Below are positions 1-16,757 of a DNA stretch of 26,013 nt, one piece after another. The first letter of the stretch is position 1. The number at the start of each line of letters is the position of its first letter. The DNA comes from a virus (lineage: Duplodnaviria > Heunggongvirae > Uroviricota > Caudoviricetes): the IMG/VR virus record IMGVR_UViG_2671180460_000013; one strand, written 5' to 3'. The notes under the pieces were generated by a model. It did not search any database. It was given only the letters and a program-made list of their open reading frames with translations, and was not told where the DNA came from. The translations under genes and the position numbers were made by a program.

Positions 1-381
1 TTATGAGTTCTGGAATTCTTCTGCCCGTCTTTCCAGTTCAGCCATGAAAGAAGTTTTGGCTTTTTCGTGAGCATCTGGGGCCATGATGCTGATGATTTGT
101 ATATTGTCATAATCCATCCAGTGCCTTGTATAAACCAGATAGATATTTGAAGTTCTGTCTATTTGGGCTTTGCTTTTCTTCCATGGTGGTTCTGACGGTA
201 GTCTTATGTGTAATTTATATACAAACGAACCACATAATCTTGCGTTATCTTCCCACTGCCCTTCATTGCCGAATCTGTCAGGGAGAACACCGGTATTTAA
301 CCAGTTTTCCAGAGCCTTTCCGTAAACTTTTGCAATGTCCTGGTATTCAACATCTTTATGAATGCTTACTTTGCTTGCCAT
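1..381 (-). CDS. hypothetical protein (126 aa), distal gene of a two-gene cargo operon; faint RelE/ParE-like C-terminal pattern, function unassigned
   Basis: ORF track 1..381. ATG at 379-381 overlaps the TGA of the upstream gene (TGATG), stop TAA at 1-3. Sampled lines are AT-richer than the structural genes. Confidence 0.5.
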   Translation of the reverse strand: MASKVSIHKDVEYQDIAKVYGKALENWLNTGVLPDRFGNEGQWEDNARLCGSFVYKLHIRLPSEPPWKKSKAQIDRTSNIYLVYTRHWMDYDNIQIISIMAPDAHEKAKTSFMAELERRAEEFQNS

Positions 382-1007
382 CAGGAAAACTCCGGTGCCG
401 GGAGTCCCATGTTTTTATGCTCGGCAATAATCATTGCTTTCACATTTCCGTCAGACAGCGTATTGCCCAGGCTGGTTGTTTTGTCTGGTGCGGTGCTTCG
501 TTTGATGGTGTTGATGGCATCACGAGCGATAAACTCCCCCTGCGCAATTGCCCGACCAAAACGAACCAGTTTATTGCGATAGGCGATTCTTTGCTCCAGG
601 CTATCCGGATACATTTTTGCCAGGTTATCCGGATCCATTACAATTTTGACAGCCTCTTTAACACGGGTGTGCTGCTTAATTGACTCTTCGCATATTTTTA
701 TGATTTTTGCGGTTTTGTCAGTAAATAGTGCTCCCTTACCTCTGTTCTGTCGTTCTTCAATGACTGCATTGAGCGCGGCACGCATGTTGTCATTCAGCCC
801 GTTGATATATTCAATAGCTTCTTCGAGAGGCAGAAACACCTGACCATCATGATGCTCAAATGTAAGCATTGAAACCACTCTGGCGTGTGTCGCGGATTCA
901 ATAACTGTTGTTGGTAGTATCGTGCTTTTAGCTGGCACCGGAGCCAGTGATGCTGTCAGAGCTGTAGTAATAGCAGCAATGGCAGCAGACTTTGATTTTC
1001 GTTTCAT
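381..1007 (-). CDS. exported protein of unknown function (Sec-type signal peptide), about 208 aa
   Basis: ORF 381..1019. Internal ATG at 1005-1007 is preceded by GGAG. N-terminus MKRKSKS followed by hydrophobic AAIAAITTALTASLA and a VPA cleavage-like site. Confidence 0.55.
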   Translation of the reverse strand: MKRKSKSAAIAAITTALTASLAPVPAKSTILPTTVIESATHARVVSMLTFEHHDGQVFLPLEEAIEYINGLNDNMRAALNAVIEERQNRGKGALFTDKTAKIIKICEESIKQHTRVKEAVKIVMDPDNLAKMYPDSLEQRIAYRNKLVRFGRAIAQGEFIARDAINTIKRSTAPDKTTSLGNTLSDGNVKAMIIAEHKNMGLPAPEFS

Positions 1008-1544
1008 AATGCACTCCACAGGTTGATGTGTTCAGCATATCGCAAATAGCAGCTTGTATAAAGAAACGCCACATCAGCAGCGATCGTTTTACGCGCTTTT
1101 CTTCTTGTTGCGATCCTTTTTTCAGTTTTATTTTGGAGCTTAATTTTGTGCGGGCCGCGCCGTGTCTGCCTTCTTTGTTTGATGGTTGTTTGACGCGATC
1201 CTTTCGTGATCGTTTTTTTGTCTCGCGTAAAGTATGAAAACTCTTTTAATATCATGCGGTTTTATTGCTCCGGCCATTTGTGCGATCGTAAAAACCACTT
1301 TGAAAACTGCAAAAAATTTCAAAGCGTGAAATTTCAGATCTTCGCTTTTCCCTCAGTTGCTGCGCGGGCTGGCGGTCATTTTTGCACGGCAGAAAACTGA
1401 AAAAGTGTTTCGACACAAAACCCGCGGGTTGGAGGGGGTAGCGCGGTTTACGTTACCTCACGCTTTACGTCACGCCGTTTGCGCGGTGTGCGCATACAGC
1501 GCCAGAATGGCATGCAGAACGATTAATCAGGTGGCAGATATGAA

Positions 1545-1568
1545 AACGCACGGCCGGGACCGTGCGTT
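1545..1568 (-). terminator. candidate intrinsic terminator hairpin downstream of the tail operon
   Basis: 9-bp inverted repeat AACGCACGG / CCGTGCGTT with a 6-nt loop, followed on the minus-strand transcript by UUCAU. Lies about 40 nt after the stop of the 1607..3304 gene. Confidence 0.4.
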
Positions 1569-1606
1569 GCGTGATGGGGCGTTTATGTGGCTTTTATGTC
1601 TGGTGT

Positions 1607-3304
1607 TCAGGCGATAATGTCGCCGTATTTTTCGCGCAGGCTCGTCGCCTGCAGGGCATCTGCGGCAAGTTCGCTGCTGTTCATTGGTGTGCCAGTGTTG
1701 CTATGGGTGTGGTTTGCTGTATGTGTGGCCAGTAATTGAATCAGATCCAGAATATCGATCAGCAACGTCAGCAGGTTAAGCCCTGACTTTTCCCGCGAGC
1801 CGCCGCGACCAATAAATACTGTCGGAGCGGTAAACTCCAGACCGCCGTCCGCTCTGCATGTTCTGCGGCCTCCCACGTTTTCGGTGAGGTCATGCTCAAT
1901 GGTGGATATCGCCCCTTTGAGTTGAGTCAGCAAATCCTGCGCTACCATCTGGATATGCTCACCGGCTGCGATCGCATAATTGCCGGTAGTAAGGTGTTCT
2001 GTCTGGCCTGTCATCAGTTTGCTGGTACCAAGAACACTGGTTATGTCGTTTGCCTGGACTGTTGTTGTTCTGGTTGTTGTTGTGCGTTCTTCCTGATCGC
2101 TGTTAATGGTTCGCCTGGCTGAATGCTCCCTGATTTGCTGGTCGGTTTCTCTGTGCCAGCTTCCGTCAGTCGTGACGCGCTGAAACACTTCTGCGCGCTG
2201 TTGCTGCAGCTGTTCGCCGGGCTTTACATCAGGCAGGTTATGGCCTGCGGGTAAGATTTGCCTGATGACAGGTTTATCCGGTCGTCCTTCAATGTTGGAT
2301 ATTTCCACGATGGTGCCAGCCGGCGGGTAGGCAAAACATCCCGCCTCGCTACCAGCCATCGGGACGGGGAGTGGTACTGCCGGATAAACAGGCGTATCGC
2401 TTTTATCGTTGCCGTTCTCATCAAGCAGTTGCACATCGACGGCGTAGCGTGGGCGGAAACTGTCGGCAACATCGCCCAGGGTGACGGATTCCGTTGGGGC
2501 AATGACGCGCGCCAGCCTGGTATGTAGAGTACCGCTGGCCAGTTCCGGGAACTGTGTTTCCATCTGTCTGCGTAATGGTGATTTGGAAACAGGGCTACCC
2601 GTGGTGGTAAGGCGTTCCCATGTCAGGGTCATTTTCTCGTTGTTGAGGGCTACACGGGTAATGCGCCCGGCTGGAAGGTTCACGCCCGGTCGCACAGTTT
2701 CCATAAACATGATGTCGATGCTGTTTCCGCCGCTTTGCCCGAGTGTGTACTGTTGCGGAATATCCGGCATGGTAATACTGGCAAACCGTGAGTCCGATGC
2801 GCTTCCCACAAATACGGAACCGTCCGGCATTGGATGCCAGACGTAATCGCTGATACTGAATGCTCGCCCCAGCTGGCTAAGCAGTTGTGTTCCGCTGCCG
2901 CTGTGGGTGATGTAAGGTGTCGGAGTACCGACGTAATCCGCGTCTGGCGTGATGAAAACGATGCCGCTTTGTTTACCCAGACTATCGAGTACATCCCGTA
3001 ACGTTGGATGTTGCATGGAGCAGGGGAAATCAAAATCCAGCACGGCAGCTGCTTCACGGATAAAAAGGCGGCGTGAGCCATTTTCGGCGGGTTGATCGCG
3101 TTCAATGTAGCCGGAGAAATAGCGCCATGCCTCACCATTACGGCCGAGATCAATTTGTATCATTGCGCCGGCAAGACTTTTTTTGGGTGGCAGATTATTA
3201 ACAGAAATGAAGCCACGACCGGCAGCATTCAGGGTAAGAACAAGGCTGATATCGGCAATTTCCGCCAGCTCGCCATTAATCATACAGCGTTGGATTAATT
3301 TCAT
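1607..3304 (-). CDS. baseplate central spike protein (gpV / gp5-like OB-fold and His-rich tip) with a ~300-aa N-terminal extension, possibly a hub-spike fusion
   Basis: 565 aa. Motif AGTIVEISNIEGRPDKPVI resembles the OB-fold signature of P2 gpV / VgrG. C-terminal THTANHTHSNTG resembles the HxH metal-binding apex of spike proteins. ATGA overlap with the upstream gene; AGGAGG RBS. Confidence 0.5.
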   Translation of the reverse strand: MKLIQRCMINGELAEIADISLVLTLNAAGRGFISVNNLPPKKSLAGAMIQIDLGRNGEAWRYFSGYIERDQPAENGSRRLFIREAAAVLDFDFPCSMQHPTLRDVLDSLGKQSGIVFITPDADYVGTPTPYITHSGSGTQLLSQLGRAFSISDYVWHPMPDGSVFVGSASDSRFASITMPDIPQQYTLGQSGGNSIDIMFMETVRPGVNLPAGRITRVALNNEKMTLTWERLTTTGSPVSKSPLRRQMETQFPELASGTLHTRLARVIAPTESVTLGDVADSFRPRYAVDVQLLDENGNDKSDTPVYPAVPLPVPMAGSEAGCFAYPPAGTIVEISNIEGRPDKPVIRQILPAGHNLPDVKPGEQLQQQRAEVFQRVTTDGSWHRETDQQIREHSARRTINSDQEERTTTTRTTTVQANDITSVLGTSKLMTGQTEHLTTGNYAIAAGEHIQMVAQDLLTQLKGAISTIEHDLTENVGGRRTCRADGGLEFTAPTVFIGRGGSREKSGLNLLTLLIDILDLIQLLATHTANHTHSNTGTPMNSSELAADALQATSLREKYGDIIA

Positions 3305-3876
3305 GTTTTCCCTTCCTCCTTCACGCTCCCGATGCCAATCCAGTCCAGCCCGGAGCCAATACCATCATTGATATTTTTCCAGAAAGTCTCCTGGGTATTC
3401 ATTCCTTTATCTGGTGCCTGCTCACTGCCGTTCTGTGTCTGCTGCTTTGCGATTGTTTTCTGTGAGCCACTGCGTGCCGATGCTTTTTCCGGCACGCTTA
3501 ATTTTTCCCTGAGGGTAAAGGTGACCTGCCAGTGCATCTTGCCCTGTTGTTCCGTGGCATCGATGCCGCCCGAAAAAACACCCTGTCGCATATTAATCGC
3601 CTTAGCAGTAGCGTTGGCGATGCGGTATGTTTTTTTGGCTCCGTTACTTTCTGTTGCCTCCGCAAGCTGAAAAATACGGGTCAAAATAGCTTCATCGTTA
3701 AAATCAATAACCCCCGACACGCGCAGCTCTTTGGCCTTGTTTCCCTGCTGGGCGCTCGTGGTGCTGGTTGATTGTCCGGACATATCTTTGTCCGGTAGTT
3801 GCATGGTGGCGCTGACGGTGATGTTGCGCAGCAGAATGGCTTCCCCGTCAAGCGCAAGGACAATCATCTGGGTCAT
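3301..3876 (-). CDS. hypothetical tail/baseplate-associated protein (191 aa)
   Basis: ORF with ATG at 3874-3876; its stop overlaps the start of the spike gene (ATGA). Sits inside the tail operon; no recognisable motif. Confidence 0.4.
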   Translation of the reverse strand: MTQMIVLALDGEAILLRNITVSATMQLPDKDMSGQSTSTTSAQQGNKAKELRVSGVIDFNDEAILTRIFQLAEATESNGAKKTYRIANATAKAINMRQGVFSGGIDATEQQGKMHWQVTFTLREKLSVPEKASARSGSQKTIAKQQTQNGSEQAPDKGMNTQETFWKNINDGIGSGLDWIGIGSVKEEGKT

Positions 3877-4570
3877 GTAGTGCTTCCCTTAGTGATGAGA
3901 GATTATCGCCGACGAACAGCATCACAGCTGTAAAAACCCACTCGGGGTGTGGGATGTTTTTTTGTATCAGCACTGCGGCCTGGCTAAGGGCTCCCTTGTA
4001 GCAAAAGCGCCACACCGGGCAAAATTTTTGCCGGAGTGCTGCCTGCTGATCAGCGATTTCCTGTAGTGCTTTATCTCTCGCATTCATGAACTGACGCAAC
4101 GATGATGACAATGTTTCCGGTGATGTGACGGCAGGAGTGGCTGCCTGTGCAATGGTTGCTGCCAGTGACATGCTGCGAGTGGTCTGTGTCGATAGCATTA
4201 TCGGTTCCGGAAGTGATGTTAGCGGTCTGGCGGGGATTTGCATTCTGCTGATGGCCAGTGAAAGCTGGCTGGAGATCATGCGGGACATTCGTCCCACCTC
4301 TGGCAACGGAAATGCGCCTGAAAATTGCCTGGCGAGTGATAGAAACTCGTCGGCAGACGGGGCGCAAAATAACAGCGCCACAACGTCTTTTTCTGTGTTT
4401 TCTGTCAGATAAGGTAAAAGCGCGGATACAGCATTATCCGGGCTGAGGTAACGCCCTGATGGTGTAATGTTTCCCGTATTTTCTGACCATGGGTGGAGGC
4501 AAACCATTGAACAGGTAATAGCTATGGGGGCTGGTCGCAAAACAGAGCGTATCCATGTTGAATTGTTCAT
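3848..4570 (-). CDS. hypothetical protein (240 aa), Ser/Thr/Ala-rich with a Cys-containing C-terminus; possible accessory or chaperone of tail fiber 2
   Basis: ATG at 4568-4570 with AGGAAG RBS, 24 nt after the fiber-2 stop. Lacks the conserved C-terminal motif of classical tail fiber assembly proteins. Confidence 0.4.
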   Translation of the reverse strand: MNNSTWIRSVLRPAPIAITCSMVCLHPWSENTGNITPSGRYLSPDNAVSALLPYLTENTEKDVVALLFCAPSADEFLSLARQFSGAFPLPEVGRMSRMISSQLSLAISRMQIPARPLTSLPEPIMLSTQTTRSMSLAATIAQAATPAVTSPETLSSSLRQFMNARDKALQEIADQQAALRQKFCPVWRFCYKGALSQAAVLIQKNIPHPEWVFTAVMLFVGDNLSSLREALHDPDDCPCA

Positions 4571-4594
4571 TTGTTCTTCCTGTGTGTCCGGATA

Positions 4595-6151
4595 TTACCC
4601 CATTCCGTTCTGGCGTAATGTTGTTCCCGCAAATATTTTTGCCACCACAACACAGGGAAGGGGGCCATTTTCTGCGCTGGCTGTCTCCTCCAGTGTCGAT
4701 GTATCCAGTGCATAGTAAGGTGTGTCTGGCATCACCACCCGTATTCTTACTGTTATTGTGCTCGCGGTAGCCGAAACAGAACCGACAAAATACTGAGCAG
4801 GAATGTATTTCCGGTTCTGATTCATGTAGAGATAACGTGGTTCGAGCAGAGCAGAAACAACGATACCCACTCCCCCAACAGAGGATTTCCTGACAGGATT
4901 AGATACATCCAGTTCCATAGCATAAATACGTGAACCATCCGGTAGGCTTTTAAATGAATCCAGGTTGCTGTTCAGGGTACTTGCAGCCACCTTTGGAATG
5001 ACCGGATGAGTGCCATCAACAAATAAGTCTCCGGATTGTTGTCTGGACAGTAAATTGGTCGGCGCAGAAGAAATTGCGGGGTCCTCTGATGAATGGATGT
5101 CAAGAGATTCTATCTGTTTGCGAACAAAGGCCACACTGGCAATTTCATTATCTGCTGCATCATCCGGCGGTGTTGGTATAGTCGGCTTTCCTGTGAATTC
5201 CGGGCTTTCCAGAGGAGCCCTTGTTTCAATAAGTTCCCTGAGTGCAACCTCGTTTACTTTCAGGTTTTCCCAGCCAGTCAGCCAGCCATTACCAGTGGAC
5301 CAGTAACGGTTGTAATAAATATTGCCATTAATGCCGTAGAAAATAATGGCCTTTGCTGTATGTGACGGAAGTGGTGGGTTCTGGTTCGCCTCCAGCCAGC
5401 GGATACTTATCACCCCCCGAAAAACAATGCCGGGAAGTACACCGTTTGCCCCATCCACATAATATTCTCCTGGTTCCACATATCTTATCCATGCCAGAAA
5501 ATCAGCATCAGAGTTAAACCTGACGGCCTCTCCCGGAATAAAAATATGCCCAAAACCAAATGCGCCTGGTGTCGCCAGACGACCTTCAGAACGGTCACGG
5601 ATACCATTCTGAGGTTCCATTGTGGCCGCTTTTTTTAGCCCGAGATTATCGCGTGATTCCTGTTGTGCCTCTTCGCCCTCATCAGCAATTTCTGACAGGC
5701 GATTAGGTGCTTTCAGTGCTGTTTTCAGTTCCGGAGTGATATCCACCTGCCAGCTCTGCGGAGGGGCTGTGACTTGTGCAGACTGAGCAATGCCGCTGTA
5801 TATAATCGTGAAATTACGAATAAGTGATTCGCCTGTTACTTTTTGTCGAACAGGCGTTTTTATTACGCCGCACAATGTTCTGCTGGCCTGATGGATGAGG
5901 CAAATCCAGTCATAACTGAATGCGGAGTCATCGGGAACAACGGCACTACACACAATATTGTTCTGACTTAACTGCCCATAGGTCAGTTCATTAACAATAT
6001 ATGTGATTTTTTCTTCCGGGATGGCATCATCTTCGCGCGTCGGCTCCCGCTCCATCAGGGCAAAAATAATGGCATCAGGGCGTGCAGGTAAATTACTGGC
6101 TGTGCATTCAGCAACCCACTTTTCAAATGCTTTCGTTAACAGTGCGCTCAT
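4595..6151 (-). CDS. tail fiber protein 2 (518 aa)
   Basis: N-terminal ~150 aa alignable by eye to the N-terminus of fiber 1 (PARPD, YxW motifs). Contains the fiber motif SPEFTGKPTIPTPP...EIASVAFV. C-terminal half is unrelated to fiber 1. AT-richer than neighbours. Confidence 0.7.
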   Translation of the reverse strand: MSALLTKAFEKWVAECTASNLPARPDAIIFALMEREPTREDDAIPEEKITYIVNELTYGQLSQNNIVCSAVVPDDSAFSYDWICLIHQASRTLCGVIKTPVRQKVTGESLIRNFTIIYSGIAQSAQVTAPPQSWQVDITPELKTALKAPNRLSEIADEGEEAQQESRDNLGLKKAATMEPQNGIRDRSEGRLATPGAFGFGHIFIPGEAVRFNSDADFLAWIRYVEPGEYYVDGANGVLPGIVFRGVISIRWLEANQNPPLPSHTAKAIIFYGINGNIYYNRYWSTGNGWLTGWENLKVNEVALRELIETRAPLESPEFTGKPTIPTPPDDAADNEIASVAFVRKQIESLDIHSSEDPAISSAPTNLLSRQQSGDLFVDGTHPVIPKVAASTLNSNLDSFKSLPDGSRIYAMELDVSNPVRKSSVGGVGIVVSALLEPRYLYMNQNRKYIPAQYFVGSVSATASTITVRIRVVMPDTPYYALDTSTLEETASAENGPLPCVVVAKIFAGTTLRQNGMG

Positions 6152-6157
6152 TACTTC

Positions 6158-6694
6158 TTAATTCTCGCTAATATTCTGCGGTAATTCTGGCCATACAATT
6201 GCGGCATACGATGATTTATCTGTAACCTGACTGAATGTCATCTCTCGTAACGTTTTTGTATAAATACGCCAGACTTTCAGCTTTTCCTTGTCTTCATCGC
6301 TGATTAACCCCAGCAGCAAGTCTGTCTTTTTATCGGATATTTCCCGTTCAGCAATCTCTATAAAACGCGCACGCTCCGACTCCGCCCGCTGTCTGTAGTC
6401 AACAGGAACAGGAAGAACTGCGCCATCTTTATAATACCAACGTGCTTCAATACAAAAACCTTCGGGTAATTCATCCGCTTCCACAATGGTAAAACCTGCC
6501 GGATAAAGCCGGGATACGTCTTCCGCCATTGAATAAATAACGCCGGTTTCAGGATGCGTGCACAGCTTGTACTTCTTCGTGAATTTATCCAGTGATTCAT
6601 AAAAATCCTGCCCGTCTTCACTACGGAAATACTGAATGCCTTCACCATAAGGCATATCTTCAGGGTAGTAACGCGTAACATTTCTGAGCTCCAT
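6158..6694 (-). CDS. tail fiber assembly protein (P2 gpG / Tfa-like)
   Basis: Start moved to the internal ATG at 6692-6694, preceded by AAGGAG. KDGAV motif and C-terminal WPELPQ resemble P2 gpG as recalled. Immediately downstream of fiber 1. Confidence 0.8.
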   Translation of the reverse strand: MELRNVTRYYPEDMPYGEGIQYFRSEDGQDFYESLDKFTKKYKLCTHPETGVIYSMAEDVSRLYPAGFTIVEADELPEGFCIEARWYYKDGAVLPVPVDYRQRAESERARFIEIAEREISDKKTDLLLGLISDEDKEKLKVWRIYTKTLREMTFSQVTDKSSYAAIVWPELPQNISEN

Positions 6695-6708
6695 TGTTTT
6701 CTCCTTAA

Positions 6709-8406
6709 TTAACCTGACACAGAACGCCATGCGCCATTTATATAAATCTGAGCCTGTTTGTAATACACGCCACCGATATTATCCGCAGAGTTGCTCCCGG
6801 TATCCTGAACCAGAATACCGGACAGGGTGCAGCCAGACGGTGCGCGGAACGTCCAGCTGTGTTCGTTCCCTCCCGGGTTGTAAAACACCTCACTGGTGTA
6901 CTGAAAATTCTGCACGCCTCCTGTTCTGGTCTGGTAGCGTTCATCGAAATTGCCATAATCAGTTGGTGTTACCCGCCCTGAAACATTCACTTCCCGGTTA
7001 CTTTGTAACGCGCCATTCTGAAAACGGAATATGTGCTGACCATTGGCATAAACATCCAGCAGGCCGTCACCATTCTGTTTCAGGCCGGTATCGTTATCCC
7101 CGAAAGCAATTGAGTTACCGCCCAGCGCGTTCTGAACGCCGATACCAAGTGCACCATTGACCTGCGAACCACCGCCAACAGACACTTTATGCGACATGGA
7201 TATTTCACCCGTCCGCAGATTAATAGTGAACGGTCGAAGTGGACCAATATCGCCATTCTCGCCCTGACCTTCACTGGTAGGGATAAGGTGCAGGCACTCT
7301 TCCGAACGACGAAAAATCAGACCAAAGGCTTCGTCGAAAATTCGCAGCGCATTAATACCACGGATTTTCAGCTCCCCGGTCATGGTATCGCCGTCGCGCT
7401 CAACAGCGCCTTTTGCCTTATCCATTACGATTTTTACTGCCTTTGATGTGGCGGCACGGTCTTCTGCGTCACTGTCGGTGTCATTACTGTACTGCGCAAA
7501 ACCCTTTTCGTTCAGTGTGGCATCCGGATGTCTGCGGGATTTTTCGTGTTCTGCCAGCGCATTGCTTTGTTCCTCGTCGGGTGTTTCCGGGCGCAGATCC
7601 TGTGGGCCGTCTCCTGTCATTTTTGCAAGTGGCGCGACAAAGTGTCGGAAGCCGTTATCGTCTGTATAGGACGCATGTTCCTGGCGGGCGCAGAACGTAA
7701 AAACGGTATTCCATTCGCCGGTAACAAATCCCTGCCAGCTTGCATCAATCCAGAGGGTATCCCCGACCGCAGCCGGCAGGCTGTAAGGTTCGCGCAGACT
7801 GACGCGCAGACCTCCCACATAACCCACGCCGGCGGCAACAGTAGCGGTACCGTCCTGATAGCTGACCTGAAAACCATCCCCCAGAAAAGCGGCTTCACCG
7901 TAGTGATCAAACGCCAGCAGCCGGCGGGCCTCATCCATTCCTGCAAGGCGTGCAGTGAAATCAATCTGCCAGACATCAGCGCTGACATCGATATGCATTG
8001 CTGCGGCTGCGCCGTCAAACTCCATGGAAAATGTGCGGATCAGGTTGTTTCCCTGCACGCCGTTCGCTGTTTTAATTTTTTGCTGACGAGGTGTGTGTGC
8101 AATCATGCAGAGCACGCCGCTTTCTTCGTTCAGCAGACCGATCCAGTTGTATTCGAAGTCGCCGACTGTCGTGTCCAGAATGATGGAAAACGCGGTCGCG
8201 TTCGGCGACAGGAGGCCGTACTGGGTGACCGGCGCACGATACTGAATCATGGATTCATCAGGGAGTATCTCATCGCGGGGGATCTCTGCGGATTCATCCT
8301 GTCCCGGAATATATGCAAAAACAAATGTATCCGGTCGCGCAGGTTTTCCACTGATGATCTGATTTGCGCACCAGTGTTCGTATTGTTCAGTAATAATCGT
8401 GCTCAT
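6709..8406 (-). CDS. tail fiber protein 1 (P2 gpH-like)
   Basis: 565 aa. AEHEKSRRHPDATLNEKGF, GDNDTGLKQNGDGLLDVYANGQHIFRFQNG and C-terminal YINGAWRSV match recalled P2 gpH blocks. ATGA overlap with the upstream gpI-like gene. Confidence 0.85.
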   Translation of the reverse strand: MSTIITEQYEHWCANQIISGKPARPDTFVFAYIPGQDESAEIPRDEILPDESMIQYRAPVTQYGLLSPNATAFSIILDTTVGDFEYNWIGLLNEESGVLCMIAHTPRQQKIKTANGVQGNNLIRTFSMEFDGAAAAMHIDVSADVWQIDFTARLAGMDEARRLLAFDHYGEAAFLGDGFQVSYQDGTATVAAGVGYVGGLRVSLREPYSLPAAVGDTLWIDASWQGFVTGEWNTVFTFCARQEHASYTDDNGFRHFVAPLAKMTGDGPQDLRPETPDEEQSNALAEHEKSRRHPDATLNEKGFAQYSNDTDSDAEDRAATSKAVKIVMDKAKGAVERDGDTMTGELKIRGINALRIFDEAFGLIFRRSEECLHLIPTSEGQGENGDIGPLRPFTINLRTGEISMSHKVSVGGGSQVNGALGIGVQNALGGNSIAFGDNDTGLKQNGDGLLDVYANGQHIFRFQNGALQSNREVNVSGRVTPTDYGNFDERYQTRTGGVQNFQYTSEVFYNPGGNEHSWTFRAPSGCTLSGILVQDTGSNSADNIGGVYYKQAQIYINGAWRSVSG

Positions 8407-9038
8407 GCTTTGTCTGCCTGTAATGTGTAATGCTCCACGGACAGGCCGTAATGTCCTGCCTGTAGCGAAGCGGTTAACCAGATGGTGTCCTTTCTCACCG
8501 TTGCTTCTGCTGTGTGATACCTGTAATGACCATCGAATGTGCCGGCTGTCAGCCGGGCGGTGGTTGTATTGATTACCTGAAAGAAATAGCGCCTGCAGGT
8601 ACGGCCATACTGGCGCACGAGCTGCATCATCAGGGCATTGTTTTCGCTTAACTGGGTGTCATTGATACGCAGTAAAATAACGTCCCAGTCATGCTGCAGC
8701 TGTCGTTCCAGGGTTTTTACCTCTCCCACCCCAAGACGCTTAAAGATGCGTTCGAAGCCTGCGCGTTCGCCCGAGTCCTGAGCGTTGATAAACGCGTGTT
8801 TTACCCTTAAGCGAAATAATGAAACTGGCTCCCCACTGAAGCGGGTGATGTTGCGCTGATAGGCAAGCAGGTTAAGCAGAGGCTCTGCGCAGGTATCAAC
8901 ATCAATTTGCTGTAGTGGCCATGTCAGCCAGCTGTAGACCTTCTCCCAGTAACGACGTGAAGAATGTGCCAGTGTTAATGGCTCTCCCTTGTTCATCCAG
9001 GTTGGGAGAGGGAATTCGGGCATCTCCGGAATATTCAT
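8403..9038 (-). CDS. baseplate protein, P2 gpI-like (tail protein I family)
   Basis: Start moved to the internal ATG at 9036-9038 (GGAGG RBS, ATGA overlap with the J-like stop). Position between the J-like gene and the tail fiber matches the P2 J-I-H order. Sequence similarity is weak. Confidence 0.55.
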   Translation of the reverse strand: MNIPEMPEFPLPTWMNKGEPLTLAHSSRRYWEKVYSWLTWPLQQIDVDTCAEPLLNLLAYQRNITRFSGEPVSLFRLRVKHAFINAQDSGERAGFERIFKRLGVGEVKTLERQLQHDWDVILLRINDTQLSENNALMMQLVRQYGRTCRRYFFQVINTTTARLTAGTFDGHYRYHTAEATVRKDTIWLTASLQAGHYGLSVEHYTLQADKA

Positions 9039-10219
9039 GACCCCACCTCCACGATAAGGGATTCCAGGCGAGGCACAGCCAGGTCGCTGAGAATATCCGG
9101 AAGGGAAAACGTGACCGATTCCACCTGTGGAAATACCTGGTGGATCTCTTCGCCCAGTCGGGACATGCTGAAACGGCTGTACGGCCATGTTTTCTGAACG
9201 TCATAATCGCTGTTTTCGCGAAACGCACAGCGGACCAGATTCTCTACGTTGCGTAATAAAGCCTGTATCTCTTCAGCGTTGAGGTTCAGCGTTGCATACA
9301 GCCAGAGTGTCACGGTCAGGGCATGGCGCGTTTCAGGCATGGAAAAACAACGCAAATCATCGCCGTGTCCGTGATGACCTTCATCGTTAATAAATGCGTT
9401 TACTGCATCAACGAACGGTTCGGATGCGATGCCGGTATCCAGCAGAATGTAAGCATTTGCTGTGCCGGGGCCGCGTGGTGCGTCATGCAAAAAATAGATG
9501 CGGTCGGCACTGATACCTGCAACGCCGGCAATTAATCCCCGGTAAACAGCATCTGTGTGATAAGCGCCGGCAAGATTAAACTGATTGCGAACACGATCAC
9601 GCAGCTCGTCATCGCTTTCTTCGTTGGCACCCGGTGTGGTCAGCCAGTTTTCATCGTTCTCAACGCCGGCAATACCATCAATCGCCACCGGAAGGATGCG
9701 GTAATATCCCGGCGCAAGGTTAAAGCCGGCTCCGGCCTGTTCCGCAGAAACATCGATGTTCATGCTGAGTGTTCCTGCCGGAATAACGGTATCCCTGACA
9801 ACGGTCAGCGTATAAATCACGCCGTTAATGCGTTCTGTCTGAATCTGCGTACCGGCCGGCACGGTAACTGTGCGATCAATGTCGTTTTTGGTGAAACGAA
9901 TCACGCCGGCTGCGTGCGTGGCGGCCTTGCGTTGCAGGTTTACCGCCCAGGCAAAAACATCAACGAATACACCGCTGGCATCAGCCAGAAACAGGTTTTT
10001 CATCACCACATTAACCAGCGCATCTTTCAGCCACATCACGGGCTTTGTGGTGATGGCTGTAATCAGTCGCCAGAACGGCGACATGCGGGATGTGTTGGTA
10101 ATAAGCCCTTCGTCTTTGACAATGGCTTCAAATTCAGCGCGCGCCTGTTCTTCGGTTACCGGCATGCCATTATCAGCCAGAATGCGCTCGTAATCTGCGG
10201 TAGGTTTGCCGTTAATCAT
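9035..10219 (-). CDS. baseplate wedge protein, Baseplate_J family (P2 gpJ / T4 gp6-like)
   Basis: About 394 aa; ESDDELRDRV region resembles recalled P2 gpJ. ORF-track start at 10222 is TTG; the adjacent ATG at 10217-10219 is used. Confidence 0.65.
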   Translation of the reverse strand: MINGKPTADYERILADNGMPVTEEQARAEFEAIVKDEGLITNTSRMSPFWRLITAITTKPVMWLKDALVNVVMKNLFLADASGVFVDVFAWAVNLQRKAATHAAGVIRFTKNDIDRTVTVPAGTQIQTERINGVIYTLTVVRDTVIPAGTLSMNIDVSAEQAGAGFNLAPGYYRILPVAIDGIAGVENDENWLTTPGANEESDDELRDRVRNQFNLAGAYHTDAVYRGLIAGVAGISADRIYFLHDAPRGPGTANAYILLDTGIASEPFVDAVNAFINDEGHHGHGDDLRCFSMPETRHALTVTLWLYATLNLNAEEIQALLRNVENLVRCAFRENSDYDVQKTWPYSRFSMSRLGEEIHQVFPQVESVTFSLPDILSDLAVPRLESLIVEVGS

Positions 10220-10562
10220 CAAGAGATACCGTAAAAGTCAGGTGGTCAAAAAAATCTTCGGTGTGGGCGCTAATCAGCAGGCGACCAGAAAGCGGGGTTT
10301 CTTCTGTCACACTGACCGTGCCAGGTGTGATGCGCTCATCATCTTCAATCAGTAGTGTCATCTGCATTATGAGGTCGGCACGAAGCGTCGGGCTTTTTTC
10401 AGCCAGCAGGCGCGTTGCCAGTCCGCTCTCAATGATGGCGTGCTGGCAGTCCTGGGCAATACTTTCCCTGTTGTTGCATAACACCGGCTCACTGGCGCTG
10501 TTCAGCGTGAGATTGCGACCGGTGATAAGCAAATCAATGTAAAGCGGTTTATCAGTATGCAT
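10212..10562 (-). CDS. small baseplate protein, tentatively GPW / gp25-like
   Basis: Internal ATG at 10560-10562 with GGAG RBS gives 116 aa, overlapping the tape-measure stop. Size and position match P2 gpW; motif match is loose. Confidence 0.45.
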   Translation of the reverse strand: MHTDKPLYIDLLITGRNLTLNSASEPVLCNNRESIAQDCQHAIIESGLATRLLAEKSPTLRADLIMQMTLLIEDDERITPGTVSVTEETPLSGRLLISAHTEDFFDHLTFTVSLDD

Positions 10563-12648
10563 GTAGCTCCATCCACTCGTTGAGACGGGCAGGAGATGGA
10601 TCCTGCACGTTGACGTTGACCACACGACGGGAGTTATCGATTGTGGTCTGGTTTTCGTTGTTGTTCTGCATCTCTGCCGCAATGCCACCCGGCCCCGCGC
10701 TGATGGCTTTACCACCGGTTAATACGGAGCCTTCGCCACTTCCTGTGCTTTCTGATGTGCCGATGTTAACGCCGGGGATCATGTTGAGTTTGTCCACAAT
10801 CCAGCCCCATGAATCACTGAAGGACTGTTTCACCAGTTCCCAGAGGTTACTGAAAATGTTCAGGATGCCGCCGGCGATATCCTTCAGGGCGTCCAGAGGT
10901 GAATGCGTGGAAAAATAGTTAACCAGTGCATTCCAGCCGTCCTGGATTGTGTTCCATGCATTGCCGAACCATGCCCCCATACTGCCGACCATTTCAGCCA
11001 CCCACTGAAAGGCGGCGGTGTCCATCAGTGCGGCTTTGATTTCATCCCAACGGGTGATCAGGAAATAAATGCCCACACCCAGCGCAGCCAGTGCCAGGAT
11101 GATTAATGTGATGGGGCTGAAAAGTAACTGTGTTGCAATTGCAGCTCCGCTGGTGACTGCGGTGTAGATTTTCATTGCTATGCCGGCGGCACCCAGCGCA
11201 ACAGAATAAAGCCAGAGTCCGGCGCGCTGTAATTTCAGCAGCGCCAGCTGAATTTTTGCTTTGACGTTGTATGTTCCCATAGCAATGGACATGGCCAGAT
11301 ACAGCGCCCTGACCGTTCGGGCAACTACAGTGAATGCCCACATGGTAGCCGTCAGTGTGCGTTTCAGCAGAATGAGAATCTTCAGAGGTGTAACTGCTGC
11401 CAGCCAGACCAGCCGCAGTCCTGTCCAGACAAACTTCGCCACACCCACCATAATGTTGACAACGGCACCCACTGCGGCAATGCCCAGCAGGGCGGCAGAC
11501 AGTAAACCAATAGCCCGTGTGATATTGGGATACAGACGTAACCAGGCAACAAAGGATTTACCGCCTTCGTTGCTTTTCTGGATAAACGGGTACAGAACAG
11601 GCAGCAACTGCGTGCCGATTTCGATGCGAATGCCGTTAATAATTGCGGCGGCCTGTTCCCATGGATCAGCCATGGCCTGCGCCATTTCGACAGCCTTATC
11701 CATCCCTTTGATATTGCCCAGCGTGGCGATATTCTTTTCAAGTCCGCCAATGTCCGCATTGAGTAATTTAATCATGGCCACAGCTTCATCGGAGCCAAAG
11801 GCGCTTTTCAGCAAATCGGAATCAGCCACTTTTGACAGATCACCAAATTTGCCCCTGATAAGTTTCATGATCTCGACAACACTTTTCATCGTGCCGTTTT
11901 TATTCACGAAATTAAGCCCCAGCTTTTTCTGGGCGCTGCCTACTGCGGCAAGAAATGCCTTGTACTTTGTCCCGGCCTCGCTGCCACTCATGGTGGCCTG
12001 CAGTTGTCCCAGCACGGCGAACTGTTCAGCCGCATCAATACCGGCCGCTTTTGCACTGGCACCCAGCGTGGTGAACGCCGCTGACATGTTATCGCCGGTT
12101 GTTTTAAACATTTGCACGGCGGTGGCGGTTTGCCCGGCGACCTGCTCCACCCATTTGCTTTTTCCCATGGCATCAGCCTGGTCTTTAAAGATGCCGTACA
12201 TGGTGCCCATGTAGGCGGTAATGGTCTGGCTGCTGGATTTGGTTGCTGCTGCCACCGTTGCTGATGCGGTGGTGAAGCGGGACAGCTCATCGTCAGTTAA
12301 CCCGGCAATGGCTGACTGGATGTCGTAAGAAGCACGCACAAAATCCTGCGCAGCCCCGCCGTATTCCATAGTGAAATCAACGGCGGCGCGGCTGAGTTTA
12401 CGCAATCCGGACTCTGCGACGCCCAGTGATTTCACCTCACCGAGCGCCCTGTCCATTTCAATGGCTGGCATCAGTGCCCCCTGAATGGCTGCACCCACTC
12501 CCCAGAGCGCAGCGCCTCCGGTAGCAATGTCCCGAAAGGCTCCCCGACTTGTTGCAGCAAATCCCTGAACCTGTCGCCCGGCTGCACGCAACGGCCTTGT
12601 CAGGCGGTCTGTCAGTTCAAGAAGTAATTCAAGGCGCTGTTGTGACAT
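10552..12648 (-). CDS. tail tape measure protein
   Basis: 698 aa, Ala/Gly-rich with a long hydrophobic central segment. Directly follows the frameshifted tail chaperone pair; its ATG overlaps the stop of the frameshift product. Confidence 0.8.
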   Translation of the reverse strand: MSQQRLELLLELTDRLTRPLRAAGRQVQGFAATSRGAFRDIATGGAALWGVGAAIQGALMPAIEMDRALGEVKSLGVAESGLRKLSRAAVDFTMEYGGAAQDFVRASYDIQSAIAGLTDDELSRFTTASATVAAATKSSSQTITAYMGTMYGIFKDQADAMGKSKWVEQVAGQTATAVQMFKTTGDNMSAAFTTLGASAKAAGIDAAEQFAVLGQLQATMSGSEAGTKYKAFLAAVGSAQKKLGLNFVNKNGTMKSVVEIMKLIRGKFGDLSKVADSDLLKSAFGSDEAVAMIKLLNADIGGLEKNIATLGNIKGMDKAVEMAQAMADPWEQAAAIINGIRIEIGTQLLPVLYPFIQKSNEGGKSFVAWLRLYPNITRAIGLLSAALLGIAAVGAVVNIMVGVAKFVWTGLRLVWLAAVTPLKILILLKRTLTATMWAFTVVARTVRALYLAMSIAMGTYNVKAKIQLALLKLQRAGLWLYSVALGAAGIAMKIYTAVTSGAAIATQLLFSPITLIILALAALGVGIYFLITRWDEIKAALMDTAAFQWVAEMVGSMGAWFGNAWNTIQDGWNALVNYFSTHSPLDALKDIAGGILNIFSNLWELVKQSFSDSWGWIVDKLNMIPGVNIGTSESTGSGEGSVLTGGKAISAGPGGIAAEMQNNNENQTTIDNSRRVVNVNVQDPSPARLNEWMELHAY

Positions 12649-13129
12649 TACGATCCCTTAAAAGCACGGATAATGCCGTTATTGACGGCGATGCTCATAT
12701 TTTCCCAGTAGTGGTTATCCAGCCAGACGGCGGCAGCCAGTGACTGCGGCGAGTCATCCTCGCCGGGCAGCCAGTGGCGGCGCAGAATCAGCATCCGGGT
12801 AAGGTCATTGCGATCAATGGCCCCCAGATGGCTTTTTATTTTTTTACGGTGATTTCCACTTCCGGCACAAACTCGTTATTCACGGCTGTTGCCAGGCTGG
12901 CCGGCATTCCTGGTTTTTCCAGCAACTGGTTCAGCAGATCGCGGTGCTCTTTAATCACGATACGGCGCAGGTAGTTTTTCAGCGGCGCGATTTTGTTATC
13001 CGGCATGAAGTCGTTCTGCAGGTCGTTGTAGGCTTTTACGGTCGGGATAAACGTCAGTTCATGCTCGCCGACCTGTAAAGTGATGGTGTTCTCTGCGGTA
13101 GTCTGGGTGTTTTTATCGTTCATCATCAT
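12648..13129 (-). CDS. tail assembly chaperone frameshift fusion product (E+E' / G-T analogue) made by a programmed -1 frameshift
   Basis: The -1 frame entered at the slippery site stays open for 63 codons (hand-translated, no stops) and ends at a TAA overlapping the tape-measure ATG (TAATG at 12646-12650). Confidence 0.6.
12836..13129 (-). CDS. tail assembly chaperone (P2 gpE / lambda gpG analogue)
   Basis: 97-aa ORF directly upstream of the tape measure gene, ending ...VKK-TAA on an A-rich slippery run. Three consecutive ATGs at 13121-13129; the third has the best RBS spacing. Confidence 0.7.
   Translation of the reverse strand: MMMNDKNTQTTAENTITLQVGEHELTFIPTVKAYNDLQNDFMPDNKIAPLKNYLRRIVIKEHRDLLNQLLEKPGMPASLATAVNNEFVPEVEITVKK
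12839..12845 (-). other. slippery heptamer A AAA AAA for the -1 ribosomal frameshift
   Basis: Transcript reads ACC GTA AAA AAA TAA; the X XXY YYZ heptamer sits at the last sense codons of the chaperone gene. Confidence 0.6.
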
Positions 13130-13155
13130 TTCCTTTTAAAGTCAAGAATAAGAGG

Positions 13156-13187
13156 GCTTAATAAGCCTGCAGGAAGGCTTATTAAGC
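13156..13187 (-). terminator. stem-loop (12-bp perfect inverted repeat) between the endolysin and the tail chaperone; candidate attenuator or partial terminator
   Basis: GCTTAATAAGCC, 8-nt loop, GGCTTATTAAGC, 7 nt after the endolysin stop. Followed on the transcript by a moderately U-rich tract (CCUCUUAUUCUU). Confidence 0.4.
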
Positions 13188-13193
13188 GTAAAA

Positions 13194-13535
13194 TCAGCGC
13201 ACGCCGTCGTGCTCAAGGCTGAAATGATTGCCATCCGGGCGGTTTTTAAAACGACCGCCCCATGCGCCACCAAGGGATTCCCAGTACTCGCCCAGCTCGC
13301 GGTAGGCCTCTGTGCGGGTCTGATATTCACCGTTAATAAACAGATTAAAATCCACGGCCAGCCGCTGGCAGTGCAGGCTGTTGGCAATGCCGGATCCCTT
13401 TTGTGCGTTGAGTTTTGCCTGTTCTGGCGTGCGGTACGCCTCACCGAACGTCAGGCCATAACCGCGCTGATGGGCAAACTGGATGAGTTTTCCGATCATG
13501 ACGGTAAATTGTTGTTGCTTATCGGAGAGTTTCAT
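13194..13535 (-). CDS. endolysin, M15-family zinc peptidase (L-alanyl-D-glutamate peptidase type)
   Basis: 113 aa. HCQRLAVD (H-x6-D) and C-terminal GNHFSLEH fit the M15 zinc-binding arrangement. AAGGAG RBS. Adjacent to the holin. Confidence 0.75.
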   Translation of the reverse strand: MKLSDKQQQFTVMIGKLIQFAHQRGYGLTFGEAYRTPEQAKLNAQKGSGIANSLHCQRLAVDFNLFINGEYQTRTEAYRELGEYWESLGGAWGGRFKNRPDGNHFSLEHDGVR

Positions 13536-13639
13536 TTTTGCTCCTTATGAGGTTGCTGAGGTTTGCGCAGCCAGTACCACAGTGCCCGGATAATTTTCCA
13601 GGCAATGGCGGCAGCTTTTTGTTCCCTGCGGGACAGCAT
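13532..13639 (-). CDS. small cationic amphipathic ORF (35 aa, MLSRREQKAAAIAWKIIRALWYWLRKPQQPHKEQK) between holin and endolysin
   Basis: Hand-translated; below the ORF-track size cutoff. ATG at 13637-13639 with GAGGAG RBS inside the holin 3' end. Its TGA overlaps the endolysin ATG (ATGA). Confidence 0.4.
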   Translation of the reverse strand: MLSRREQKAAAIAWKIIRALWYWLRKPQQPHKEQK

Positions 13640-13644
13640 TGCTG

Positions 13645-13941
13645 TTACTCCTCTTTGTTCTCTTTCTCGCCCAGCTTCCGGCGCATATGACGCAGGAAGA
13701 TTTCAACAATCTGGTAACCGGCAACGCCCATTGCGGTGCCTGCGCCGGCAATGGCCAGTGGGTCAAGGTTCGGGTAGCGAACCAGCAGGGCAGCGGCAGA
13801 AACACCCAGCGCGCTCCCCAGCAGGGTTCGGCCCACAAACAACCGCAACGTAATCGGCTCTGCGCCAGCCAGCACCCGACTTGCGGCAGCGATTCCGCCC
13901 AGAATGCCCAGAGTGATAATGGTGCGCTCATGCTCCTGCAT
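13645..13941 (-). CDS. holin (three predicted transmembrane segments, charged C-terminal tail)
   Basis: 98 aa with three hydrophobic stretches and a C-terminal RHMRRKLGEKENKEE. Directly upstream of the endolysin. GGGGTG RBS. Confidence 0.65.
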   Translation of the reverse strand: MQEHERTIITLGILGGIAAASRVLAGAEPITLRLFVGRTLLGSALGVSAAALLVRYPNLDPLAIAGAGTAMGVAGYQIVEIFLRHMRRKLGEKENKEE

Positions 13942-13944
13942 GGT

Positions 13945-14400
13945 TCACCCCATCAGTCCGCGCACGTCGTTCTCTGAGAGAACGGGCACGCCGTTGATAC
14001 GCACAAAGTCAGGGCTTGCCACCACGTACTTGATTTTGTGCGTGGTCAGATCTGCGCTCTCGGTGTCAATGCTTAACAGGCCGGAAAGCATCAGCTCACA
14101 ACCGAAGGCTTCAACGCGGATTTCTTCGGTTCCCGTATTGGCGTAAAACACAAAATCCATTGGCGGCAGGTCACGCCACGATCCCGCCTGAGCAGCCACT
14201 TCCCCGAGCTGGTTAAAGCTGCGGGTACTCATTTCGATTTCACCTTCGGCACTGACAGGGCCGCGCAGTTTGCCGTCAGGGATGCCACGGGTTTTGGCAA
14301 CGGCGCTTTCATCGCTGATGTCCAGTGAGATGCTTTTCACATGGATATCCGTTCCACCGATAAAAGTGTCAAACGCCATGCCGTTAATGCGGGTCGTCAT
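13945..14400 (-). CDS. tail tube protein (putative)
   Basis: 151 aa, immediately downstream of the sheath gene with an ATGA overlap. Assignment is by position and size, not motif. Confidence 0.6.
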   Translation of the reverse strand: MTTRINGMAFDTFIGGTDIHVKSISLDISDESAVAKTRGIPDGKLRGPVSAEGEIEMSTRSFNQLGEVAAQAGSWRDLPPMDFVFYANTGTEEIRVEAFGCELMLSGLLSIDTESADLTTHKIKYVVASPDFVRINGVPVLSENDVRGLMG

Positions 14401-15545
14401 GCGTTTTCCTCCAGAGATTTATCCAGCTGAATGCCCACTTTGATGGTTTTAGGGCAGGCGTAAGGGCGGACAACAATGCTGATGCTGACCGTCTTTTCGT
14501 CCTGCCAGGTGATAACCACGTCGCCTTTCCGGGGCGATTTCACTTCGCCCGGAAACGTGATGCCGTTAATTTGCATGGATTTCGCCATGGCACGCAGTGG
14601 GCGGGCAAACAGCGTTTCATGTGCGGCAATGCTGCCCGGCGTGCTGTTCAGCGAGCGGTCGGCAATCTTGGGGATGGCCATCAGCCGCACGCGGCGCGCC
14701 ACCTTATCAGCAATGCGGACATGCTCAATGACGTTGTAGTCCCCGCCTTCCACCTCAAGTGTTACACCGTCAGCCCAGTAAAGGCCGTCATAGTCGGCAT
14801 ACCACATGGGCACGCTGTAGCGGGCGGTTGCCAGTGCCTGCAGAGTGTCGAGATCAATTGCCTGCCCAGTGCTGTCTTTCGGGCGTTCTGTGGTTTTCAG
14901 TGCGGACAGGGGCCCGGTTGCCACACGTGCCGGACTGTCAGCAATGGTGACGGCGCTGTTACACAGGCGACCGGCAAGAACGCCCGGTTCAAATCCAAAA
15001 ATCTCCGGAACCAGCATGACCTGCGGGGCTGCAATGCCTTTCTGTAGTGCGGTCAGTTCGGCAACGTATTCCGCCCAGGTTTTACTGTTGTCGTTGGCGG
15101 CGATGGTCAGGATGAACCAGATGCGGCGCTGATATTTATTGATGATGGTCTGACGTAACGCCTGTATGGCGTTGATGTCATCCTTCGTGCTGACCGGCTC
15201 GGTGATCACCACGCCTTCAACTGAAACAGTTTCCTGAGCCGCCAGTATGGCGTTCTGCCATACCTGGCAGGCTGGCGTTGCTTCTTTGCCTTTGCCGGCT
15301 TCCGGCAGAACGGCAACATAGAAAAAGGCATTCTGTCCGGCATTGGTCAGTGCAGACTGAAGGAAGTTCTTCAGCGGGCTGGCGTTCTTTCCCAGTAGCT
15401 CATCCAGATCGCTGTTGGCATTAACCGGCAGAACCTCACCTTTGTTGTTTTGTGCATTGCCCACAAACAGCAGCGTATTTTCCACGCCGTCCGGTGAACT
15501 GCTGAATGTGTTGTACTGTTCAATCGTGACAGATGGCCATGTCAT
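14397..15545 (-). CDS. tail sheath protein (putative)
   Basis: Internal ATG at 15543-15545 with AGGAGA RBS gives 382 aa (MTWPSVTIEQY...). Position between tail-completion genes and tube. Not P2 FI-like in sequence. Confidence 0.6.
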   Translation of the reverse strand: MTWPSVTIEQYNTFSSSPDGVENTLLFVGNAQNNKGEVLPVNANSDLDELLGKNASPLKNFLQSALTNAGQNAFFYVAVLPEAGKGKEATPACQVWQNAILAAQETVSVEGVVITEPVSTKDDINAIQALRQTIINKYQRRIWFILTIAANDNSKTWAEYVAELTALQKGIAAPQVMLVPEIFGFEPGVLAGRLCNSAVTIADSPARVATGPLSALKTTERPKDSTGQAIDLDTLQALATARYSVPMWYADYDGLYWADGVTLEVEGGDYNVIEHVRIADKVARRVRLMAIPKIADRSLNSTPGSIAAHETLFARPLRAMAKSMQINGITFPGEVKSPRKGDVVITWQDEKTVSISIVVRPYACPKTIKVGIQLDKSLEENA

Positions 15546-16748: not shown

Positions 16749-16757
16749 ACCATTTCC

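Follow-up and report, generated by a model that had tools for sequence, protein, structure and literature searches.

The DNA stretch analysed here (hereafter the window) is the IMG/VR virus record IMGVR_UViG_2671180460_000013, 26,013 nucleotides (nt) long and assigned to the Caudoviricetes, and two minus-strand genes occupy its first kilobase. The first of these, gene A, encodes a protein of 208 amino acids (aa) that we call A208, and the second, gene B, encodes a protein of 126 aa (T126) that is homologous to toxins of the YafO family. The junction between the two genes reads CCTGATGGC, and the TGA stop codon of gene A and the ATG start codon of gene B share one base (TGATG). This one-base overlap implies coupled translation of the two genes. 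Open reading frame coordinates and junction sequence thus bear out the two overlapping genes that had been described in a first-pass annotation of this DNA. The edge of the window coincides exactly with the stop codon of gene B, and our view of the window copy ends there. We consider that positions 1-1107 (minus strand) probably represent a self-contained, horizontally mobile two-gene cassette of the toxin-antitoxin type, carried by prophages as cargo and likely serving defence or addiction. A non-canonical type II toxin-antitoxin module is the best-supported description of this cassette.

The assignment of gene B was made with a 96.5-bit match to the Pfam family PF13957 (YafO_toxin; cutoff 25), in which residues 26-125 covered profile positions 2-101 of 101. 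The AlphaFold model of T126 was confident and showed the RelE/HigB (BECR) fold. T126 shared 31% identity with YafO of Escherichia coli K-12 over 104 residues and was of comparable length (126 versus 132 aa). Residues H58, R76 and H105 aligned with identical residues of K-12 YafO and were invariant throughout the T126 clade. Identical copies of gene B carry the RefSeq product name 'type II toxin-antitoxin system YafO family toxin', and RefSeq describes K-12 YafO as a ribosome-dependent mRNA interferase toxin. On the basis of these homologies T126 would be expected to have ribonuclease (RNase) activity. T126 nevertheless belongs to a separate clade and is not a YafO ortholog, as its score against the NCBIfam equivalog for YafO proper (NF007377) was 42.7 bits, far under the cutoff of 153. 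The homologue lists of the T126 clade and of the K-12-type YafO clade showed zero overlap.

Gene B was found in a conserved pair with members of the A208 family. In a scan with one genome per species, a YafO-family gene lay directly after the gene A homologue in 17 of 18 species loci, the exception being a truncated copy. Directly behind all six distant partner homologues (23-33% identity) there was likewise a gene of PF13957, one of them an open reading frame that had not been called. Overall, 23 of the 24 partner-anchored loci had a YafO-family gene directly downstream, with partners down to about 23% identity. When the toxin was taken as the anchor instead, both loci checked (Salmonella and Xenorhabdus) encoded a 200-202-aa member of the A208 family upstream, and all 24 complete genomes of E. 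coli that carry the window-type cassette had both genes. Intergenic distances ranged from -11 to +6 nt and were most often -1. The identity matrices of partner and toxin were correlated (r = 0.86), a value that none of 2000 Mantel permutations reached, and the partner diverged faster than the toxin (mean identity 0.34 versus 0.59). The loci therefore show the conserved bicistronic pair that characterises type II toxin-antitoxin modules. K-12-type YafO genes, for comparison, were preceded by YafN genes of the Phd/YefM type encoding 95-97 aa. No toxin gene without a partner was seen among the loci examined, whereas a truncated partner without a toxin exists; this asymmetry, together with gene order and translational coupling, would be expected if gene A encodes the antidote. 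A disrupted partner beside an intact toxin, suspected in two Salmonella contigs, was rejected, being a difference in gene calling with the 200-codon frame intact. The toxin/immunity-like module suggested in the first-pass annotation was essentially right. The same annotation had thought of a secreted effector with a cytoplasmic helper, and here the roles turned out to be reversed: the 126-aa partner is the recognisable toxin, and the signal-bearing protein occupies the antitoxin position.

Table 1. Features of the cassette and the adjoining spacer, in window coordinates.
Feature	Position	Strand	Description
Gene B (T126)	1..381	-	126 aa; ATG 381-379, TAA 3-1; YafO-family toxin homologue
Gene A (A208)	381..1007	-	208 aa; ATG 1007-1005, TGA 383-381; partner in antitoxin position, uncharacterised family
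C-terminal helix and tail	384..452	-	Codons 186-208 of gene A; most conserved motif of the family, V-K-A-M-I-x-A-E-H-K-x-L-G-L-x-x-P-x-F
Sec-type signal-peptide-like N-terminus	930..1007	-	Codons 1-26 of gene A; MKRKSKS / AAIAAITTALTASL / APVPA↓KS (↓, putative cleavage point)
Shine-Dalgarno-like GGAG	1014..1017	-	6 nt upstream of gene A ATG; sequence GTGGAGTGCATTATG
Candidate promoter-like element	1034..1062	-	TTTATA (1062-1057), 17 nt, TATGCT (1039-1034); read from sequence
Spacer	1008-1606		599 bp, to the stop of the last tail-region gene
Cargo junction	1108..1111		Upstream boundary of the mobile cassette; similarity to the serS copy ends at 1107, hok/gef sister prophages align from 1112
Conserved non-coding backbone spacer	1112..1606		Outside the cassette; shared by about 48 complete E. 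coli genomes irrespective of cargo
Terminator-like hairpin	1545..1568	-	RNAfold 10-bp G+C-rich stem, -16.1 kcal/mol, then UUUCAUAUCU

For A208 no functional annotation could be made by homology. It had no match in Pfam, NCBIfam or PHROG and only a non-significant match in PADLOC, and a Pfam search with 23 diverse members of its family gave no convincing match. Sequence searches of the PDB with A208 as a single sequence and as a profile found no relative, and neither was a viral-structure relative found. A word-indexed search of 5.8 billion proteins returned 39 A208-family clusters, and an exhaustive profile search of 1.84 billion representatives returned 32 matches, all to the A208 family itself. 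Wherever the organisms could be identified, they were Enterobacterales, apart from one cluster that included Vibrio. Of the remote-homology and structure searches that the first-pass annotation had proposed for both proteins, those on gene B thus gave the YafO family and the RelE fold, and those on A208 only its own family. Many NCBI and UniRef records for relatives of A208 (among P0003-P0036 of our protein set) list the protein as 'iron-sulfur cluster assembly scaffold protein SufA'. We rejected an identity as a SufA/IscA iron-sulfur scaffold, as no such Pfam or NCBIfam domain was present in A208 or 22 relatives, and judging from this domain content the name appears to be a propagated misannotation. 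An identity of A208 as a YafN-like protein of the Phd/YefM type was rejected as well. BLASTP gave no alignment to YafN at E values up to 100, and PF02604 (YafN-type, about 95 aa) had no match among the 23 A208-family members, A208 itself having 208 aa.

The AlphaFold2 model of A208 was built from an alignment of only 21 sequences and had a mean predicted local distance difference test (pLDDT) score of 74. It consisted of a helix (residues 3-18), a strand (21-25) paired with a second strand (56-60), a disordered segment (28-53), a helical bundle (61-171), a low-confidence linker (176-183) and a C-terminal helix (186-199). The most conserved motif of the family falls in this last helix and the tail behind it (Table 1). 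E196 and H197 were invariant in 23 sequences, and I193, L200, G201, L202 and P205 were at least 90% conserved. Conservation and model together mark this C-terminal motif as a putative toxin-binding element. Some truncated derivatives of the partner, 141-150 aa long (P0035, P0036, P0038 and P0039), comprise the core helices only and are without the signal-like N-terminus and the C-terminal motif. At the only such locus examined (L035), the gene for P0036 (3001-3453) is intact and flanked by gpD and ogr in a P2-like prophage of E. coli; there was no YafO gene near this truncated derivative, and a hok/gef gene comes after ogr.

The first-pass annotation had further called a clear Sec signal peptide in the 208-aa protein, which we assessed with our own charge and hydropathy heuristic against six control signal peptides. 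The N-terminus of A208 has an n-region with a charge of +4, small residues at positions -3 and -1 and a cleavage-site-like V-P-A↓K. Its best 12-residue Kyte-Doolittle mean was 1.79, which is just under the range of the six textbook E. coli signal peptides (1.99-2.58, MalE being the lowest), and most relatives scored higher in hydropathy than A208 itself. Almost every full-length member, down to 23% identity, had a positive n-region, an uncharged stretch rich in Ala, Ile, Val and Leu and small residues at -3/-1, and the Salmonella form ends in a textbook-like VHA↓DS. Close homologues all share the segment APVPA-x-S without change, and even with identities as low as 23% included it was at least 90% conserved, which places it among the best-conserved segments of A208. 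Selection on this segment acts on the peptide, since synonymous codons vary freely there, and a constraint on the nucleic acid was rejected for the same reason. For a distant A208 homologue, protein 1 of a gene pair catalogued as system 123, a Phobius-based column also flags a signal peptide (Rousset et al. 2022, Table S5B, PMC9122126). What stood of the earlier call was therefore the tripartite, family-wide layout, together with the Phobius call in the distant homologue; with a hydropathy just under the controls, the segment is signal-like and not a proven signal peptide, and its export and cleavage are putative.

From the family of T126 and the conservation of its partner, a mechanism can be outlined. 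T126 would arrest translation through mRNA cleavage in the manner of E. coli YafO, an activity that is given for YafO in a review table (Gerdes 2025, mBio, PMC11980606). A208 would be the cognate neutraliser of T126 and would most likely bind it through the C-terminal EH..LGL..P.F element. The prophage might benefit through abortive infection against other phages or through a penalty for its own loss (addiction), and such a payoff would agree with two findings described below, namely that hok/gef can take the place of the cassette and that the cassette also occurs in the P2 hotspot. The conserved N-terminal signal would give A208 a non-standard fate, either Sec export or tethering to the inner membrane, which would act in place of, or in addition to, the proteolysis that makes ordinary antitoxins unstable.

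Several observations weigh against this interpretation. Most type II antitoxins carry a DNA-binding domain, and none was recognisable in A208, neither with Pfam on the 23 family members nor in the PDB profile search. A208 is also basic, with an isoelectric point of 8.7 for the part after residue 26, as opposed to 5.5 for the acidic YafN, and neither of the two proteins matches any PADLOC defence model significantly. The antitoxin position of A208 and its putative signal peptide, which are its two features with the best support, are moreover in tension, because an efficiently exported protein cannot neutralise a cytoplasmic toxin. In the model, the strand of the cleavage region (21-25) pairs with the invariant strand 56-60 (VFLPL), and the N-terminal helix has a pLDDT of about 85; these features would fit an uncleaved, structural N-terminus, although both strands sit in blocks of pLDDT 62-66 and the alignment was small (21 sequences). 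Finally, the distant member P0093 has a glutamate in the hydrophobic region and scores poorly as a signal. The tension between export and neutralisation has three possible resolutions: only the unbound excess of A208 might be exported, the N-terminus might tether the complex, or it might be no export signal.

Were the last of these true, A208 would be an ordinary cytoplasmic antitoxin with a novel fold, its N-terminus would be a buried or oligomerising helix and strand within the fold or the toxin contact, and the cassette would be a conventional type II pair. The conflict between export and neutralisation would then disappear. The packing of helix 3-18 in the model and the pairing of strands 21-25 and 56-60 agree with this explanation, as does the conservation of APVPA-x-S, which is atypical for cleavage regions of signal peptides and reflects selection at the peptide level, and P0093 keeps the motif and a toxin partner despite its poor hydrophobic region. 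On the other hand, almost all full-length relatives, even at 23% identity, retain the signal layout, with VHA↓DS in the Salmonella form, and a signal peptide was predicted by Phobius for the distant member (PMC9122126). In addition, the N-terminal helix is not amphipathic, and residues 28-53 are predicted to be disordered as expected at the start of a mature exported protein. We therefore hold a purely cytoplasmic antitoxin to be a credible but somewhat unlikely explanation.

A more specific and more speculative version of the toxin-antitoxin reading, which we consider unlikely in its full form, takes both the antitoxin role and the signal at face value. A208 would then be a true antitoxin, and Sec export, alone or together with proteolysis, would clear whatever part of it is free: unbound precursor would leave the cytoplasm irreversibly, and the toxin-bound precursor would stay there. 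The switch would be tied both to new A208 synthesis and to the state of the Sec translocon or membrane potential, so that a shut-off of host expression or a disturbance of the inner membrane by an infecting phage would tip the balance and set the RNase free. APVPA-x-S might in this case serve both as the cleavage region and as a surface for contact with the toxin or within A208.

The signal-like N-terminus could alternatively mean that A208 acts as an effector in the periplasm or envelope, for example as a superinfection exclusion protein that blocks incoming phage DNA. A208 would then not neutralise T126, which would be held in check by other means or be regulatory. Prophage cargo sites also house exclusion genes such as P2 old and tin, and the missing acidic charge and the lack of a recognisable DNA-binding domain set A208 apart from typical antitoxins. 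We nevertheless regard such an effector as improbable. The partner was never found intact without a YafO gene, with which it co-diverges and is translationally coupled, and the cassette also occurs alone at bare chromosomal sites like a selfish toxin-antitoxin pair. The most conserved element of A208 is a C-terminal peptide after a flexible linker, which is the usual form of a toxin-binding tail, and an unneutralised toxin of the RelE fold is not expected to be tolerated. No similarity of A208 to known exclusion proteins was found, and the superinfection exclusion proposed in the first-pass annotation gained no positive evidence, there being neither a significant PADLOC match nor a relative with known function.

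The start of gene A was supported by a Shine-Dalgarno-like sequence (Table 1), and GAGG or GGAG was present at equal distance before the gene A start in homologous loci. The RefSeq gene call for gene A is likewise 208 aa. A GTG at 1019, which opens a longer frame in the mechanical list of open reading frames, was rejected as the start because it lies inside the ribosome-binding region. An internal start giving a leaderless A208 isoform was rejected too, as M48, the sole nearby methionine, is not conserved. The promoter-like element upstream remains a candidate only, as it agrees with the consensus at 8 of 12 positions and falls under the scan threshold. A block TTCTTT(A/G)T...TAT(G/C/T)CT was common to L002-L007 and L015 of our set of homologous loci despite otherwise dissimilar upstream DNA. 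As stated in the first-pass annotation, the pair is richer in A+T than the virion genes, with a G+C fraction of 0.441 at 1-1007 versus 0.533 over the structural genes (1607-20003). Only one of 501 sliding windows of equal length, located at about 20 kb, had a lower G+C content than the cassette.

The cassette was found in at least six kinds of genomic context, and its distribution is patchy and mobile. It follows the tail spike in the window and in L001, L015, L016 and L031 (Enterobacter and another genome among the relatives), and ogr in L002. Copies in the gpA-gpQ hotspot were found in P2-like prophages of Symbiopectobacterium, Erwinia, Serratia and others (L013, L019, L020, L025 and L033). 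The cassette further lies between antiterminator Q and holin in a lambdoid-type Xenorhabdus prophage (L040), beside HicAB (L032) or Phd-Fic (L037), and on the bare chromosome between housekeeping genes (L022 and L029). The copy in L002, a true P2-like prophage at serS, was 98.5% identical to the window over 1-1107 and adjoins host DNA. Between cassette and ogr of L002 (7096-7386) we found a 97-codon fragment that was 89% identical to part of the 565-aa spike protein of the window, which suggests recombination with a window-type prophage as the source of the cassette. A third gene in the cassette was rejected, as the shared part ends 100 bp upstream of gene A and the serS copy is then followed by host DNA only. 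An RNA component was rejected as well, Rfam being without a match. These homologues at cargo sites, and the swappable junction described below at the tail-region end of a Peduoviridae-type prophage, agree with the accessory, non-structural cargo operon of the first-pass annotation. That annotation had named a missing signal peptide and homologues at structural positions as findings that would speak against it; the N-terminus was signal-like and the homologues lay at cargo, not structural, positions.

The window-type cassette was present in 24 of 5426 complete E. coli genomes and on one plasmid, and no DNA or protein match to it was obtained in 50,697 sequenced phage genomes. This rarity, and the existence of truncated orphan copies of the partner, might suggest a decaying or neutral passenger, that is an inactive remnant. 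Such an explanation seems highly improbable to us, considering that both frames were intact in every copy examined, that the toxin has kept its invariant residues, and that length and motifs are conserved across Enterobacterales to 23% identity with synonymous turnover.

Coordinates and RNAfold also bore out the spacer and terminator-like hairpin that the first-pass annotation had placed ahead of the pair. The hairpin lies 39 nt past the stop of the last tail-region gene and is absent from the listing of a consensus terminator scan owing to its short U-tract. Within the spacer, positions of about 1290-1560 were nearly identical in an alignment of four loci and better conserved than the neighbouring spike gene. 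Single-nucleotide insertions and deletions elsewhere in 1112-1606 indicate non-coding DNA. Rfam gave no match in spacer or cassette, either at the gathering threshold or at E values up to 1. In about 41 of the approximately 48 E. coli genomes sharing the spacer, a Hok/Gef toxin gene follows it in place of the cassette. The hok/gef gene at the identical junction suggests an interchangeable role of the two as small addiction or defence cargo. After hok/gef, variable small genes were found in all three loci examined (L026, L027 and L028), with com and a DNA methyltransferase gene adjoining raiA in L027 and L028. In L001, an 'ATP-dependent nuclease' gene comes after the cassette.

Among the known systems close to the cassette is system 123 'YafO_toxin' in a catalogue of the P2 gpA-gpQ hotspot, where it is only listed, with 24 occurrences (Rousset et al. 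2022, Cell Host Microbe, PMC9122126, Table S5B). It shares the two-gene architecture, both protein families and the carriage by P2-like prophages with our cassette. Over the part compared, its protein 1 was nearly identical to P0095, with one residue different, a 197-aa member of the A208 family (profile E value 3.5e-18, about 24% identity). System 123 differs from the cassette in belonging to a distant subfamily and in its site, which is between gpA and gpQ and not behind the tail spike. The study does not include it among the systems that it reports as protective, and its mechanism is not discussed there; the hotspot houses old, tin and other defence genes (PMC9122126).

The yafN-yafO pair of K-12 resembles the cassette in having a toxin of PF13957 and of similar size, with the gene in antitoxin position coming first and the two genes overlapping or abutting. 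The two systems differ in the partner, as YafN is an acidic 97-aa protein of the Phd/YefM type whereas A208 is basic, 208 aa long and has a signal-like N-terminus, and in location, as yafN-yafO lies in the dinB operon and the cassette on prophages. A second RelE-superfamily module with a proposed membrane association is ToxM, a BECR-fold toxin fused to a transmembrane domain that a survey of RelE-superfamily modules described as the first possible membrane-associated type II complex (Gerdes 2025, mBio, PMC11980606). Compared by description, the toxin itself bears the membrane segment in ToxM, whereas T126 is a plain soluble protein and the signal or anchor is on A208. Type I loci of the hok/sok type (Hok/Gef) resemble the cassette in occupying the identical junction in the sister prophages. 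They consist of unrelated proteins, namely a membrane-depolarising peptide under control of an antisense RNA. Searches of the literature yielded no relevant report of a YafO partner bearing a signal peptide, nor of any type II antitoxin that is secreted.

Already known were the annotated toxin family and the catalogue entry for a distant subfamily of the pair; for the partner family there was neither a description nor a domain model, only a misleading database name. Type II antitoxins are regarded as cytoplasmic proteins. Should A208 prove to be exported and at the same time to act as the antidote, antitoxin instability would be achieved in a new way, and the release of the toxin would be coupled to the cell envelope. 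Should its N-terminus not direct export, a known toxin would still have gained a new antitoxin family. The 'SufA' misannotation, which is widespread, is corrected as well. With 1.1 kb the cassette is small, its boundaries are clear, and natural variants are available in the distant member with a poor signal and the truncated orphan cores.

The window was assigned to a P2-family phage in the first-pass annotation, which we could follow in part. The genes for terminase and portal lie on the plus strand (20198-23012) and point away from those for scaffold and major capsid protein on the minus strand (20003-18079), and this layout of the head genes is P2-type. Genes for sheath, tube, tape measure and baseplate and two tail-fibre genes come after the head genes on the minus strand. 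Matches to sequenced phage DNA were short only, a tail-fibre segment matching Rac-SA53 and the parM region matching P88-type phages including Xuanwuvirus (Peduoviridae). The P2-family label thus holds only broadly, by the head-gene layout and some Xuanwuvirus-matching DNA; the order of the tail genes is unlike that of P2, and no close relative was found among sequenced phages. The last tail-region gene (1607..3304, minus strand) encodes the 565-aa spike protein, which matched a PHROG 'baseplate protein' and had a weak VgrG/gp5 OB match.

Other genes of the window were noted in passing. The last three tail-region genes, for a 240-aa protein to which no function was assigned, an HP1_ORF34 baseplate-complex protein and the 565-aa protein, form a conserved block after the tail-fibre genes (1607-4570, minus strand), and this block recurs just upstream of the cassette in the Enterobacter prophages L015 and L016, where the 565-aa protein is about 48% identical. 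At 4595-8406 (minus strand) there are two tail-fibre genes in succession, separated by a tail-fibre assembly gene. Fragments of the fibre region are named 'shikimate transporter' pseudogenes in related RefSeq records (L001 and L026), which looks like an annotation artefact. Beyond the portal gene, 23404-25355 (minus strand) encodes an Rrf2-like regulator, Plasmid_stab_B and ParM/StbA. This region corresponds to the gpQ side of the canonical P2 gpA-gpQ hotspot, and no gpA gene was identified within the window. Partition modules of the ParM/StbA type are the commonest system in the P2 hotspot catalogue and were suggested to permit plasmid maintenance (Rousset et al. 2022, PMC9122126). A second A+T-rich stretch lies at 20001-21000 (G+C fraction 0.42-0.45) and holds the 1007-bp window of lowest G+C content (0.440). 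It starts at the divergent junction between the scaffold/capsid and the terminase/portal genes (about 20004-20197), where late promoters of the P2 type would be expected, and runs into the terminase gene.

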